From IMG/VR virus record IMGVR_UViG_3300042914_002678: a DNA stretch of 64,000 nucleotides; one strand, given 5' to 3'. Both the position numbers and the translations under genes were made by a program. Positions 1,243-9,629 of the stretch are shown here, piece after piece. This DNA comes from a virus. Its lineage: Duplodnaviria > Caudoviricetes. The notes under the pieces were generated by a model. That model was not told the origin of the DNA. It was given only the letters and a program-made list of their open reading frames with translations, and made no database searches. Positions within the stretch are counted from its first letter, which is position 1; each line of letters begins with the position of its first letter.

Positions 1243-1266
1243 CATATGCGGTCAAATTGGAGTAGA

Positions 1267-1881
1267 ATGAATTACCTAAAGGTTTATTGTAACCTTATCA
1301 GGAAAGCAGAAAATAGAACTCCTCCTGAAGGTTATGTTGAAAAGCATCACATATTTCCTAAAAGTATTTTTGGTAAAAATGATAGAGTTGTAATTCTCAC
1401 AGGGAGAGAACATTACATCGCTCACCTTCTTCTTCAAAAAATATGTGAGAAAAGATACGGAATAAGACATAGAAGCACGCAGAAGATGTTGTGTGCCCAT
1501 ATCAATATGAAATCAAAAGGAAGATATTGTAATTCATATTTGTATGAAAACGCAAGGGTAAAGAGAAGTGAAAGTATGAGAGGAGAACTTCACTGGAACT
1601 GGAAAGGTGGTGCTGTTAGGAAGTATAATTGTAAAAATAATAAAAAGTATAATAAAATAAACTATTACAATAAAAAAGAAAAATTTAATATAAATGATAA
1701 TTATAAAAGATATGAATATGAGTTAAAACATTCTTCTGGATTAATTGTTATGACTAAAAGTATGAGAAAGACCTGTGAAGAGTATGGATTAGATCATAGA
1801 ACTATGAATAAAATTATAAAGGGACAAAGAAAATCTCATAAAGGTTGGACTTGTAAAGAGGTGAAAGAATTGTCTATATAG
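1267..1881 (+). mobile_element. Free-standing HNH homing endonuclease (Mob-like) with C-terminal DNA-binding domain
   Basis: MNYLKVYCNLI...YVEKHHIFPKS...N...V.LTGREHYIAHLLL HNH motif; C-terminal CEEYGLD...KGQRKSHKGW; AT-rich insertion between core genes. Confidence 0.85.
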
Positions 1882-5062: not shown

Positions 5063-5187
5063 TGAATTTGCCTATAAATGAAAAAGAGTTGGATGATATA
5101 ATTAAAATATTGGAAACTCGTAATCCACCACTTTATGCCAAGTTGTGGTCACATAAATTAAATAAATTAAAGGGGGAAAAAAATTAA
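5062..5187 (+). CDS. Small hypothetical protein (41 aa, not in ORF track)
   Basis: MNLPINEKELDDIIKILETRNPPLYAKLWSHK...; TAATG-coupled at both ends. Confidence 0.6.
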   Translation: MNLPINEKELDDIIKILETRNPPLYAKLWSHKLNKLKGEKN

Positions 5188-6191
5188 TGGATTTTCTTAA
5201 AGATATCGTAAAAGAAATTGGTGGTGAGTATACACAACTTGCTTCCGACATTGATGAGACTGAAACTTATGTTGACACAGGTTCGTACATTTTTAATGCA
5301 CTGGTTTCAGGTAGCATATTTGGCGGTGTATCTGGCAACAAGATTACTGCTATTGCTGGAGAGTCTAGTACTGGAAAAACTTTCTTCAGCCTCGCCGTTG
5401 TTAAGAATTTTCTTGATACCAATCCCGATGGTTATTGCCTCTACTTTGATACTGAAGCTGCTATTACCAAATCTCTCTTAGAATCCCGTGGAATTGATAC
5501 TTCTCGTCTTGTGGTTGTTAATGTGGTTACTGTTGAAGAGTTTCGTGGAACTGCGCTCAAAGCAGTAGATATGTATATGAAAAAACCAGAAGCAGAACGA
5601 AAACCCTGCATTTTTGTGCTAGACTCTTTGGGAATGCTTTCAACGAGTAAGGAGATTAATGATGCTCTGAATGATAAAGAAGTTCGGGACATGACCAAAT
5701 CACAACTGATTAAAGGTGCATTCCGTATGCTTACCTTGAAACTTGGTCAAGCGAAAATTCCAATGATTGTAACCAATCACACTTATGATGTTATCGGTGC
5801 TTATGTTCCTACTAAGGAGATGGGGGGTGGTAGTGGTCTTAAGTATGCCGCTTCTACTATCATATATCTTAGTAAGAAAAAAGAAAAAGATGGAACTGAA
5901 GTTATTGGAAACATTATTAAGGCAAAGACTGCTAAGTCGCGTTTGAGCAAAGAAAACAAAGATGTAGAAGTTCGATTATTTTATGATGAACGAGGTCTTG
6001 ATCGATATTATGGATTACTTGAACTTGGTGAAATCGCAGGAATGTGGAAAAATGTCGCTGGTCGATATGAGATCAACGGCAAGAAAATTTATGGTAAAGA
6101 AATTTTAAAGAATCCTGATCAGTATTTTACCGAAGAAGTAATGCAGCAACTTGATGCTGCCGCTAAACTACAATTTTCTTATGGGACATAA
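5187..6191 (+). CDS. uvsX: RecA-like recombinase UvsX
   Basis: Walker A GESSTGKT, YFDTE, LDSLG, MGGGSG motifs. Confidence 0.97.
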   Translation: MDFLKDIVKEIGGEYTQLASDIDETETYVDTGSYIFNALVSGSIFGGVSGNKITAIAGESSTGKTFFSLAVVKNFLDTNPDGYCLYFDTEAAITKSLLESRGIDTSRLVVVNVVTVEEFRGTALKAVDMYMKKPEAERKPCIFVLDSLGMLSTSKEINDALNDKEVRDMTKSQLIKGAFRMLTLKLGQAKIPMIVTNHTYDVIGAYVPTKEMGGGSGLKYAASTIIYLSKKKEKDGTEVIGNIIKAKTAKSRLSKENKDVEVRLFYDERGLDRYYGLLELGEIAGMWKNVAGRYEINGKKIYGKEILKNPDQYFTEEVMQQLDAAAKLQFSYGT

Positions 6192-7128
6192 AGTGCATAA
6201 TATAGTAGATTGCTTTCCATACTTTAATGAAAAGGAATTATTAGAATTGAGAATTAATCTCTTAAAAGATTATGTAGATAAATTTGTCATAGTTGACGCT
6301 AATTATACTCATAGTGGTAATAAAAAAGAGTATACTTTAAAAAAAACAATATCAGAATTAAAATTACCATCTGAAAAAATAGAAGTAATAGAAGTAGACT
6401 TATCTGAAGAATGTTTGCCAGATTGTGATTTTTACGATGAACATTTTTTAAATACAAGTCAAAAAACTTCAAGAGAAAGATTTCAAAGAGACGTAATATC
6501 TAAATGTTTAGATACAAATAATTTTTCAGAAGAAACTATTTTTATAATTAGTGATTGTGATGAAATTATAAATCCAAAATATATTGATACTTACAAAAAA
6601 GCATGTTATGATAATCCTCAGTTCATTTTTAAAGCAGATTTAGTATATTTGGAAGGTAAGTGTAATTGCAGGTTATATTGTTCAGATTCTCCGGATATTC
6701 CCGCTGAGTGGAGATATTCATTATTTTTCTGCAATAAGAATCAACTTAAAAATATGAGTTTAAGTGCGATTCGTGGTGGTGTATACGATTATCTTATTAG
6801 GTGGGTTTATTCTGGTGATGATAGAATTAAAGACGTTGGTTGGCATTTTTCTTGGATGGGATCAAATCAAAATAGAATATTAAAGTCAAAATCTTTTTGC
6901 CATTATAATCAGGAAATCGATACTTTAAAATATAGTAACTATTCAAACGTTGAAATGGAAAACTTTTTGTTAGAATATAATTTTAGTGAAGGTGAAATAT
7001 GCCCTAGTGGAAATATTGGTATGATTATCAAACAATATCCACTAGAAAATTTACCTCAGATTATATTTGATCTTCCCAGAGTTAAACAATTTCTCTTACC
7101 CCAACTAGCATATAATGGAACGAATTGA
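6181..7128 (+). CDS. Glycosyltransferase, GT17-like
   Basis: DCFPYFNEKELLELRINLL..YVDKFVIV...THSG, E..QRD, ISDCDEI and GWHFSW motifs typical of GT17-like proteins. Confidence 0.8.
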   Translation: MGHKVHNIVDCFPYFNEKELLELRINLLKDYVDKFVIVDANYTHSGNKKEYTLKKTISELKLPSEKIEVIEVDLSEECLPDCDFYDEHFLNTSQKTSRERFQRDVISKCLDTNNFSEETIFIISDCDEIINPKYIDTYKKACYDNPQFIFKADLVYLEGKCNCRLYCSDSPDIPAEWRYSLFFCNKNQLKNMSLSAIRGGVYDYLIRWVYSGDDRIKDVGWHFSWMGSNQNRILKSKSFCHYNQEIDTLKYSNYSNVEMENFLLEYNFSEGEICPSGNIGMIIKQYPLENLPQIIFDLPRVKQFLLPQLAYNGTN

Positions 7129-8494
7129 GACAACTATTCTCAGAAATTTAGTATTTAATGAAGATTACTCACGCAAAGTTATTCCTTTCATACAACCAGA
7201 TTATTTTGAGCAAAAGACCGAAAAGGTCATTTTTGAAGAGATTGTTCAATTCATTGTTAAGTATGGTTCGGCAATCACCATTGAAGCACTCAATATTGAG
7301 GTAGAAAATCGAACTGATTTAACCGAAGATCAGATTAAAGAAATCAGAGATATTAATGGTTCTTTAAATGATAATCTAGTTGATAAGCAATGGTTACTTG
7401 ATACTACCGAAAAGTGGTGTCGTGATCGTGCTATTTACCTGGCACTTATGGAATCTATCCATATTGCCGATGGAAATAATGATAAAAAGAATCGTGATGC
7501 GATTCCAAACATTCTTTCCGATGCTCTTGCAGTATCTTTTGATAATAATATTGGGCACGATTATTTAAATAACTATGAGGAACGATATGAGTTTTACCAC
7601 AGAAAAGAAGACAAAATTGAATTTGATCTCGAATACTTTAACAAAATCACAAAAGGTGGTCTCCCTAACAAAACTCTTAACATCGCTCTTGCTGGTACGG
7701 GCGTCGGGAAAAGTTTATTCATGTGCCATGTGGCTAGCTCCGTCTTGCTCCAAGGACGGAACGTTCTGTACATTACGTTGGAAATGGCAGAAGAACGCAT
7801 TGCTGAAAGAATTGACGCAAACCTTTTGAATGTGCCAATTCAACAATTAATTGATCTTCCGCGTTCAACATTTGAAAATAAAGTAAATGGTATTGTAAAA
7901 AAGACACAGGGATCTTTAATTATTAAGGAATATCCAACCGCTTCTGCACATTCTGGTCACTTCAAGGCACTTCTCAATGAACTTGCTCTTAAGAAATCAT
8001 TTCAACCTGATATTATTTTCATTGATTACCTCAATATTTGTGCTTCCAGTAGGCATAAGGCAAATAGTTCTATCAATTCTTATTCGTACATTAAGTCAAT
8101 TGCAGAAGAGTTACGTGGATTGGCAGTGGAATTCAATGTTCCCATTGTCTCTGCTACCCAGACCACTAGGAGTGGATTTGGTTCATCTGATCCAGAATTA
8201 ACTGATACAAGTGAGTCATTCGGTCTCCCTGCCACTGCTGATCTTATGTTTGCTCTTATTAGCACCGAAGAGTTGGAGCAATTGGGACAGATTATGGTGA
8301 AACAACTGAAAAACCGATATTCTTCAACTGATAAATATAAGAGGTTCGTGTTAGGAATTGATAGAGCAAAAATGCGTCTTTATGATTGTGAGCAAACCGC
8401 TCAGAAGGATATTTTAGATTCTGGTAAAGATAAAGATTTTGTTTATGACGATGAACCAAAAATAAAAAAATCATTTGATGGATTTAAATTCTAA
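7115..8494 (+). CDS. gp41: Replicative DNA helicase
   Basis: LAGTGVGKS Walker A, ITLEM, IFIDYL, ATQTTR, QLKNRY. Confidence 0.98.
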   Translation: MERIETTILRNLVFNEDYSRKVIPFIQPDYFEQKTEKVIFEEIVQFIVKYGSAITIEALNIEVENRTDLTEDQIKEIRDINGSLNDNLVDKQWLLDTTEKWCRDRAIYLALMESIHIADGNNDKKNRDAIPNILSDALAVSFDNNIGHDYLNNYEERYEFYHRKEDKIEFDLEYFNKITKGGLPNKTLNIALAGTGVGKSLFMCHVASSVLLQGRNVLYITLEMAEERIAERIDANLLNVPIQQLIDLPRSTFENKVNGIVKKTQGSLIIKEYPTASAHSGHFKALLNELALKKSFQPDIIFIDYLNICASSRHKANSSINSYSYIKSIAEELRGLAVEFNVPIVSATQTTRSGFGSSDPELTDTSESFGLPATADLMFALISTEELEQLGQIMVKQLKNRYSSTDKYKRFVLGIDRAKMRLYDCEQTAQKDILDSGKDKDFVYDDEPKIKKSFDGFKF

Positions 8495-9213
8495 TGGCAA
8501 TTATTTACTGTATTCATAGTTTATCTACTGGTAAAAAATACATAGGGCAAACTATTGAAAAAATGCAGAGAAGAGTTTTGCGTCATTTTAGAACTATAAA
8601 TGAAACTAAAATTAGCAGGGAAATTCAAAAATATAGTAAATATGATTTTGTTTATGGTGTAGTTGAAGAAATAGAAGATAAAAATTTATTAGATGAAAGA
8701 GAACAATATTGGATAAAATATTATGATTCTATAGATAATGGATTTAATATTAAAGAAGGTGGTAAATGTGCAAGAGGATTTAAACAATCTAAAAGTTCTA
8801 TAGAAAAAAGAAGAAAAAAATTAATTGGAAGACCTTTGAGCGAGGAGCATAAGCAAAAGTTAAGTAAAGCACATAAAGGAAAAGTTTTATCAAGAGAAAC
8901 AGTTGATAAAATGATCGCATATAGAACTGGTAGAAAACTTACTAAAAGTTGTAAAGAAAAAATTTCTCAATCACATTCAAAAAATACTTACGAATTAAAA
9001 AAAGAAGATGGAACTATTTTGGTAATTAAAAATCTAGCAAAATTTTGTAGAGATAACAATTTTTCCCAAAGTTATTTTAGTCGTATTTTGAGAGGAGAAA
9101 GAAAAACTTATAAGGGATGGACTATCAAGATACTTGACAGTGGGCAGGATGATGAGTATAATGATTATGAAGACAAGAAACCTAAAAAATCGTTTGAAGG
9201 ATTTAAATTTTAA
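8494..9213 (+). mobile_element. GIY-YIG (Seg-like) homing endonuclease with NUMOD3-type repeats, fused to a duplicate of the gp41 C-terminus
   Basis: IIYCI...KKYIGQT...R...H, REQYWI...GFN; LSEEHKQKLSKAHKG repeats; last 27 aa resemble the gp41 tail. Confidence 0.9.
9134..9162 (+). promoter_or_regulatory. Consensus sigma70 promoter inside the coding tail, upstream of mazG
   Basis: TTGACA-17 nt-TATAAT. Confidence 0.85.
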
Positions 9214-9629
9214 TGGAAACTGCTAAACACGTTAATTTTGATAAGTATGCTGAGTTTGTGGATGCCGTAACTTCTGACGCATCCAAAGACTTTCTTGCTC
9301 TTTCTGACCGTTTGGTTGAACTGGATGAAAAGGGTGCAAATATTGAACGACTTCTGACTGCCTCTGTTGGCATTAATGCTGAAGGTGGTGAGTTTATGGA
9401 GATTGTGAAGAAAATGATCTTCCAAGGTAAACCCTATAACGAAGACAACCGCGAGCACCTGATTATTGAACTGGGTGATATTATGTGGTACGTTGCTCAG
9501 GCATGTATGGCACTTGGTGTTAGTATTGATGATGTAGTTGCTCGTAATGTACAAAAACTTCTCAAGCGTTATCCTGAAGGTGCGTTTGATGTTTATTTCT
9601 CCGAAAACCGTGCTGCTGATGATCGATGA
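9213..9629 (+). CDS. mazG: MazG-family nucleotide pyrophosphohydrolase
   Basis: EGGEFMEIVKK...ELGDIMWY...N..KL..RYP signature. Confidence 0.95.
   Translation: METAKHVNFDKYAEFVDAVTSDASKDFLALSDRLVELDEKGANIERLLTASVGINAEGGEFMEIVKKMIFQGKPYNEDNREHLIIELGDIMWYVAQACMALGVSIDDVVARNVQKLLKRYPEGAFDVYFSENRAADDR

Follow-up and report, generated by a model that had tools for sequence, protein, structure and literature searches.

A putative homing endonuclease cassette with a replacement end for the helicase gene gp41 in T4-like cyanophages

Two tails at the gp41-mazG junction

The stretch of DNA analysed here (the window: 64,000 nucleotides (nt) of the IMG/VR virus record IMGVR_UViG_3300042914_002678) comes from a T4-like freshwater cyanophage, and the record as a whole is a viral contig of 98.6 kb. 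Of the isolated phages, S-SRM01 (Kyanoviridae), a Synechococcus phage likewise from freshwater, comes nearest, with 84.6% nucleotide identity across gp41 and mazG. In the window, the replicative helicase gene gp41 and the pyrophosphohydrolase gene mazG are separated by an open reading frame (ORF) for a GIY-YIG endonuclease, and both gp41 and the endonuclease ORF end in a version of the same 27-codon tail (Table 1). Tail1 closes gp41 with the peptide ILDSGKDKDFVYDDEPKIKKSFDGFKF and tail2 closes the endonuclease ORF with the peptide ILDSGQDDEYNDYEDKKPKKSFEGFKF; each is terminated by TAATG, in which the stop codon overlaps the start of the next gene. The copies have the same length and align in register, with 15 of 27 residues and 55 of 84 nt (65.5%) identical and with agreement at 18, 22 and 12 of the 27 first, second and third codon positions. 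No other 27-residue stretch reached even 10 matches among the 127,834 six-frame positions of the window. The promoter-like motif in tail2 is the sole 12/12 match to TTGACA-17-TATAAT in the 3.2 kilobases (kb) between 6900 and 10100, and tail1 holds nothing comparable. An initial annotation of the window had pointed out this pair of tails, the TAATG coupling behind both and a promoter in the second copy only, and all three were recovered. The gp41 of the window is a hybrid gene, composed of a native body and a foreign 3' end.

Table 1. Features on and near the gp41-mazG junction of the window
Feature	Position	Strand	Remarks
HNH-type endonuclease ORF	1246-1881	+	second free-standing endonuclease of the window; motif EKHHIFPK
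uvsX	5187-6191	+	
GT17-like glycosyltransferase gene	6151-7128	+	between uvsX and gp41, overlaps both
gp41, replicative helicase (DnaB-like)	7115-8494	+	Pfam DnaB_C 1.6e-20; S-SRM01 counterpart annotated as DnaB-like replicative helicase
recoded patch in gp41	8321-8356	+	SSTDKYKRFVLG; insert-free alleles mostly NDPTIYKRFIVG
tail1, replacement gp41 tail	8411-8494	+	belongs to the mobile cassette; AT-rich; promoter motif absent
GIY-YIG/NUMOD3 homing endonuclease ORF (putative)	8494-9213	+	start coupled to the gp41 stop via TAATG
endonuclease body	8494-9129	+	212 codons; Pfam GIY-YIG 1.1e-07, NUMOD3 1.8e-05 (residues 112-130)
tail2, displaced native gp41 tail	9130-9213	+	in-frame final 27 codons of the nuclease
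TTGACA-17-TATAAT, sigma-70-type promoter-like	9134-9162	+	within tail2; inferred start near 9169-9170
GAAGGA, Shine-Dalgarno-like, for mazG	9196-9201	+	written by the E-G codons of the tail; read from the sequence
mazG, pyrophosphohydrolase	9213-9629	+	Pfam MazG 3.3e-09; start overlaps the nuclease stop (TAATG)

The displaced tail and its putative promoter

Comparison with relatives indicates that the downstream, nuclease-fused copy is the original gp41 tail, because insert-free relatives carry tail2-type tails and because homology resumes at the first base of tail2. In the phages S-SRM01, DSL-LC03 and S-SKS1, gp41 leads through TAATG into mazG with no gene between, and its tail is of the tail2 type. 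Thirty-one insert-free IMG/VR contigs hold a gp41 that ends with the exact tail2 peptide; the next gene is mazG or, in roughly one contig out of three, a different one. In an unbiased sample retrieved with gp41 residues 1-400 only, 78 of the 79 readable loci lacked the nuclease and all 78 had native-type tails. The tails of all these insert-free relatives are of the type GQ(D/E)(D/E)EYN..KKPKKSFEGFKF and not of the KDKDFVY type, which was the outcome anticipated by the initial annotation when it proposed that the ancestral tail is now fused in frame to the nuclease. The agreement extends to 84 of 84 nt between tail2 and the gp41 tail of one insert-free contig (L048). Tail2 is 94-100% identical to insert-free gp41 tails at the nucleotide level (most 94-98%), compared with 77-91% for the gp41 bodies, and the homology of the window to every insert-free relative picks up again exactly at 9130. 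The gp41 body of the window is nearest to that of insert-free phages, and empty sites at the gp41-mazG junction were found in about 110 relatives.

The promoter-like motif of the native tail is widely kept. TTGAC(A/T)-17-TA...T was present in 22 of 24 distinct native tails, in 76 of the 78 tails of the unbiased sample and in all 10 distinct fused tails, and in none of the 12 distinct replacement tails; the native tails that lack it belong to genomes in which another gene separates gp41 from mazG. In every tail with the motif its hexamer codons, CTT-GAC and TAT-A(A/C)T, are fixed, while nearby Tyr and Asp codons vary, and DSL-LC03 still keeps TTGACA with a Leu-to-Val change. This pattern points to conservation of the two hexamers and their 17-nt spacing beyond coding need, as a putative sigma-70-type promoter for mazG. 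Three lineages have lost the coding of the fused tail with the nuclease intact, by an in-frame TGA early in the tail (L018) or by loss of tail2 coding (L019 and L187), and all three keep TTGACT-17-TA(T/A)(G/A)AT ahead of mazG. A ribosome-site sequence, GA(A/G)GG, is retained upstream of mazG where a native tail precedes it, as well as in a non-coding tail remnant in L056 (described below), and is lost in L019. Because the motif persists where tail coding has been lost (L018, L019, L187 and L056), it is as regulatory DNA that the tail is conserved, and neither the fused peptide nor the coupling of translation is indispensable. Of the role given to the captured tail in the initial annotation, the promoter thus gains support from comparative motif conservation, while the coupling to mazG is dispensable, three lineages having lost the frame. 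The public runs that contain this DNA consist of assembled contigs; in the RNA-library run X20 these covered mazG (from 9230) but not the nuclease, although contigs show neither transcript starts nor levels and a gap in coverage is no evidence. In the T4-like cyanophage S-PM2, mazG was reported to stand under a putative early promoter (PMC2297514).

The same lineages bear on whether the fused tail does anything as a peptide, since it might dock the nuclease to a gp41 partner at the replisome or compete with gp41 for that partner. Within the younger clade, all 10 distinct alleles have the fused tail intact and in frame, and the tail is acidic in its centre and aromatic at its C-terminus, presumably reminiscent of the partner-binding tails of T7 gp4 and T4 gp41. 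Its intactness there is otherwise explained by constraints at the DNA level and by tail2 being the recipient's own recent native tail; in addition, related nucleases stop at the point where the tail starts, and the early stop in L018 and the lost coding in L019 and L187 occur next to an intact nuclease and promoter. We therefore regard a function of the fused peptide as very unlikely, and the idea that the tail tethers the nuclease to helicase partners, raised in the initial annotation, found no support. A combined form, in which the promoter-bearing tail serves both as homing target and as hostage (imprecise deletion removing the mazG promoter) and the fused peptide docks the nuclease to a replisome partner, is given equally little credence; if true, it would provide a phage homing endonuclease with a co-opted replisome-interaction motif, and cutting and repair would be timed to replication. 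Relaxed protein constraint on the fused tails was also considered and set aside as inseparable from background differences, each tail2 matching the native tail of its own background.

A mobile unit of replacement tail and nuclease

Tails of the tail1 type (KD.DF) were found solely where this nuclease follows immediately. Thirteen IMG/VR contigs and further entries of a large protein database share the layout of the window and its junction, ..W-x-I-K followed by (I/K)-L-D. Among these carriers, identity to the window was 83-96% for tail1 and 84-95% for the nuclease, compared with 62-90% for mazG and 71-84% for gp41 further upstream; the cassette is better conserved than either flank, and tail1 identity among cassettes tracks nuclease identity. 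The carriers L012 and L014 are identical over all 719 nt of tail1 and nuclease, agree at 282 of 306 nt upstream, diverge from tail2 onward and have different mazG types. Tail1 and the nuclease thus travel between backgrounds as one unit, and both the confinement of tail1 to nuclease loci and the 719 shared nucleotides support the earlier proposal that an element inside gp41 supplied a diverged replacement tail.

In each carrier, the displaced tail matches the native tail of whichever insert-free phage is nearest to it in mazG (L012/L112 100%, L008/L151 97.6%, L017/L181 95%), and in comparison with the native tail of the mazG-nearest insert-free phage tail2 shows 80-100% nucleotide identity and tail1 65-73%. 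The 13 distinct carriers are scattered on the mazG tree, where they need 11 state changes (mean with shuffled labels 12.4), and need 4 on a tree of the last 740 nt of the gp41 body (8.2 in shuffles), and the cassette is therefore linked to upstream sequence and unlinked downstream. With a GC content of 26% for the nuclease and 29% for the gp41 end that was replaced, the cassette is AT-rich relative to its flanks (37% and 42%). Close relatives are polymorphic for presence and absence of the cassette at one fixed site, as is characteristic of a GIY-YIG homing endonuclease, and as in known gene hybrids the diverged inserted C-terminus completes gp41 in frame with the native C-terminus kept downstream. 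Both forms also occur among contigs from lake-water runs, namely the metagenomes X1 and X2 and the run X19, which is labelled as RNA-Seq but has contigs of 2-4 kb that resemble DNA; some of these contigs span the cassette without any difference and others join gp41 straight to the native tail.

How far an exchange can reach is illustrated by a near-isogenic pair of contigs, L012 with the cassette and L112 without it. The two differ at no position in the first 1387 nt of their overlap, at 17 scattered positions in the following 1100 nt and then at 122 positions in the last ~490 nt of gp41, after which identity is 100% over 1110 nt from the first base of the displaced tail. As read from this alignment, the exchanged tract comprises ~400 nt of the gp41 body, tail1 and the nuclease, with a sharp right edge at the tail repeat. 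Flanking markers were thus co-converted with the nuclease gene, ~490 nt of gp41 having been replaced together with it, and the pattern is as expected from double-strand-break repair with one-sided co-conversion. The recoded patch in gp41, which encodes SSTDKY, is present in all nuclease-bearing alleles of IMG/VR and absent from all 78 insert-free alleles of the unbiased sample. The initial annotation was accordingly right that a foreign tail was supplied and too narrow in its extent, as foreign sequence usually reaches further, to the patch and, in L012/L112, over ~490 nt.

Traces of loss were observed as well. In L186 (1256-1456) a nuclease-free gp41 has the 3' sequence of the nuclease-linked haplotype of L012 joined directly to the tail2 of L012. 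To judge from this junction, L186 is probably a cassette-loss product that arose by recombination between the two tail copies.

The origin of tail1 also has a bearing on whether anything foreign was involved at all. Two copies in register and of equal length are what a local tandem duplication of the phage's own tail, diverged in place, would leave, and a single ancient duplication may have taken place in some ancestor. Yet tail1 keeps 83-96% identity between backgrounds with differing native tails, it shares its AT-rich composition with the nuclease, the foreign tract in L012/L112 goes ~400 nt upstream of the repeat and the gp41 body is closest to insert-free phages. Native nuclease-free tails of another gp41 lineage moreover share the DEPKxKK signature of tail1, which suggests that this lineage is where the replacement tail came from. 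For the genome studied here the sequence comparisons largely refute a tandem duplication, which we consider extremely improbable. A degenerate-pattern scan found no exact native donor of the KD.DF-type tail; the DEPKxKK tails keep EEEYN(N/T) and the promoter.

The nuclease itself has the appearance of a working enzyme. Residues 4-88 of its GIY-YIG domain were aligned to the I-TevI catalytic domain (1LN0/1MK0), with correspondence of the motifs IY, YIG/YVG, RHF, ERE..W and NG(F/Y)NI. The residues at the Tyr, Tyr, Arg, His, Glu and Asn positions of I-TevI, which we take to be its catalytic residues, are identical in the nuclease. The ratio of nonsynonymous to synonymous substitutions (dN/dS) was 0.05-0.30 across 11 nuclease alleles with synonymous divergence (dS) of up to 0.8, indicative of purifying selection, and the enzyme looks active. 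Its C-terminal DNA-binding module aligns with that of phage relatives and with the C-terminus of the HNH endonuclease of the window. Phage relatives of the nuclease stop 4-13 residues past the conserved ..G.RK..KG(W/Y/F).. motif, about where tail2 begins, and the 27 helicase residues are for that reason to be seen as an appendage. Like I-TevI and I-BmoI, the enzyme has its GIY-YIG domain at the N-terminus, connected by a NUMOD3-type linker to a small module for DNA binding at the C-terminus, which ends ..G.RK..KGW..; unlike them it is not intron-encoded and has 27 extra C-terminal residues from gp41. No close relative of the nuclease at this site was found in the isolated-phage collection, where the best matches (~30-34% identical) were enzymes of Clostridium, Bacillus, Staphylococcus and crAss-like phages. 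One distant relative (~32%) in Bacillus phage Izhevsk (NC_071045.1, 41332-42081; L104) lies directly after a DnaB-type helicase gene and before a primase gene.

The HNH enzyme of the window carries a C-terminal module (I-HmuI NUMOD-like, ..KGQRKSHKGWTCK..) that resembles that of the GIY-YIG enzyme. One binding module would thus be common to two catalytic classes within one phage.

Other insertions were seen in the neighbourhood. The gp41-mazG junction is a hot spot for cargo, as found in L036, L058, L094, P-SSM2 (L004), S-T4 (L005) and Bellamy (L006), and the cargo includes a PF05175-domain gene (P-SSM2), a 136-residue ORF and a 105-residue ORF starting MNGYYSVF. The gp41 gene itself is broken at the Walker A motif (ALAG|CVHPE..) in L015 (496-2989), which looks intein-like; in L018 (216-3001) it is in pieces with extra ORFs, one of which has a NUMOD3 motif, and in L050 about 1.45 kb is added between the equivalents of window positions 8167 and 8186. 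These interruptions are reminiscent of gp41 genes that have been described as 'fractured' and contain split inteins (PMC2677866). On the other side of gp41, the glycosyltransferase gene of the window is missing in the closest insert-free relatives, where uvsX abuts gp41; elsewhere the position between uvsX and gp41 holds a homing endonuclease (S-SRM01) or a 2OG-oxygenase-like or cupin gene.

Proposed homing without an intron in an essential gene

We consider it likely that the locus harbours a free-standing GIY-YIG homing cassette inside the coding region of the essential gp41, without intron or intein, which carries a recoded gene end and leaves the displaced tail to serve mazG. The mobile unit consists of a foreign recoded gp41 3' end (27 codons and usually more upstream) and a nuclease ORF that lacks a stop codon and continues in frame through the original 27-codon tail of the recipient. 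The replacement tail completes gp41, and the displaced tail contains the sigma-70-type promoter, the Shine-Dalgarno sequence and the overlapping start of mazG. The nuclease, presumably lacking a promoter of its own, starts on the gp41 stop and would ride the upstream message, and the peptide added to it would be a by-product. Insert-free gp41 alleles would be cut at or near codons D432/I433; a co-infecting genome with the cassette would then serve as template for repair, by which the cassette is transferred and gp41 upstream of it is co-converted on that side only.

In genomes with an empty site, no DNA of the region is better conserved than the final 84 nt of gp41, as would be typical of a homing target. 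The full native tail persists behind the nuclease in carriers, so the recognition site should not be confined to the tail and most likely straddles the insertion point or is situated just upstream. In all 12 versions of tail1 the first five codons still encode ILDSG, with four codons altered at the third base and the Leu codon replaced as a whole, and this synonymous recoding (ATA CTT GAC to ATT TTA GAT) may protect carriers from self-cleavage. At the left junction an upstream half-site would adjoin the replacement tail and at the right junction nuclease sequence would adjoin the native tail; with half-sites at both junctions, carriers would be immune. A search by eye for an I-TevI-style CNNNG motif 23-25 nt upstream of the junction was uninformative, the nearest one being present in both allele types.

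Several points weigh against this interpretation. The target site and the immunity of carriers are deduced from sequence, and the relatives compared are metagenome contigs. The 31 insert-free contigs with the exact tail2 peptide were drawn partly by that very peptide pattern and are biased, a flaw that the sample retrieved with residues 1-400 corrects. The direction of change, gain or loss, cannot be read from the single pair L012/L112. The SSTDKY patch was also found in nuclease-free L186, L188 and L189, with native tails directly before mazG, and its strict linkage to the nuclease, perfect in IMG/VR, thereby failed in a search of 5.8 billion proteins. Because it occurs with native tails and no nuclease, the patch seems to mark past contact with the cassette and not to be a strict determinant of immunity. 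Finally, in L056 (3084-3680) a 169-residue 2OG-Fe(II) oxygenase lies between gp41 and mazG in the same two-tail layout and without a nuclease; the gp41 tail there is promoter-less, its -35 hexamer having been lost (CTTAAT), and a frameshifted non-coding tail remnant keeps TTGACT-17-TATAAT, GAAGGA and TAATG-mazG. By this example, a nuclease does not seem to be needed to create the two-tail architecture.

The oxygenase of L056, set between a promoter-less tail copy and a promoter-keeping remnant, is also what would be expected if ordinary recombination between phages, acting on the conserved promoter-bearing tail, had produced the layout and distributed it, with the nuclease as one cargo without any drive of its own. 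Such promoter-repeat (PeSL)-mediated exchange is documented in T4-type phages (PMC4122927), the tail as the best-conserved DNA of the region is a good recombination substrate, and other cargo was found at the junction in P-SSM2, S-T4, Bellamy, L036 and L058. It is, however, hard to explain without some benefit why the catalytic-position residues and purifying selection are maintained across deep divergence; the cassette is more conserved than its flanks and identical in two backgrounds, and the synonymous recoding of the first five codons in all 12 tail1 versions fits target immunity. Recombination alone is therefore an unlikely account, and homing is preferred.

The layout as such has precedents. 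In fungal mitochondria, mORF 'gene hybrids' have been described in atp6 of Allomyces macrogynus and in atp6, atp9, cox2 and nad3 of Glomus (PMC3630166; see also PMC6279837). As in the cyanophage cassette, an endonuclease ORF lies near the 3' end of an essential gene, a foreign in-frame C-terminus completes that gene, the native C-terminus is displaced downstream and closest to insert-free relatives, and some frames run on without a stop. The present case differs in its phage host, in its replicative helicase target, in TAATG coupling instead of fusion to the host gene, and in that the following gene has its promoter and ribosome site in the displaced end, which is conserved for that purpose. 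The population evidence is here provided by many backgrounds and one near-isogenic pair. The layout having been published already for fungal mitochondria, the particular value of the present case is the promoter-bearing displaced tail together with an unusually complete population record.

Among phages, the cassette resembles the 'intronless homing' of the Seg and Mob enzymes of T4, as a GIY-YIG enzyme between conserved replication genes with no early promoter of its own, with the downstream promoter inside the endonuclease ORF and with co-conversion of flanking DNA. The seg and mob ORFs of T4 embed promoters of downstream genes, for example those of gene 32 in segG, and such endonuclease genes as a rule ride upstream messages and avoid early promoters (PMC2988022). 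The T4 examples are intergenic or split genes into two polypeptides (mobE, mobA), and none is described as carrying a duplicate of the end of its target gene (PMC2988022). Unlike in T4, the origin of the embedded promoter, by capture of the tail of the upstream gene, is visible here. Integrating elements such as e14 and phage 21 in icd, and many islands in tRNA genes, likewise come with a replacement gene end. As in e14 and phage 21, a slightly different 3' end of the target is brought in and the original end is stranded on the far side; in contrast to their integrase and attachment site, the cassette has no integrase and would spread via homologous repair or recombination between phage genomes. 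In the literature covered, which did not include subscription journals so that absence is not proven, no paper was found on such a cassette in cyanophages or other phages.

To our knowledge, homing endonucleases have been thought to persist in essential genes only by means of self-splicing introns or inteins, and otherwise to be intergenic. The cassette would represent a third route in a phage, in which a spare recoded copy of the gene end is carried along. It would also show how an endonuclease ORF can come to contain the promoter of a downstream gene, which has long been noted in T4 and may make the element hard to lose. The nuclease is a candidate sequence-specific enzyme with a defined and highly conserved target region. 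Since public data include carriers and empty sites, one near-isogenic pair, versions in decay and contigs that probably arose by loss, the whole cycle of gain, decay and loss may be studied at one locus.

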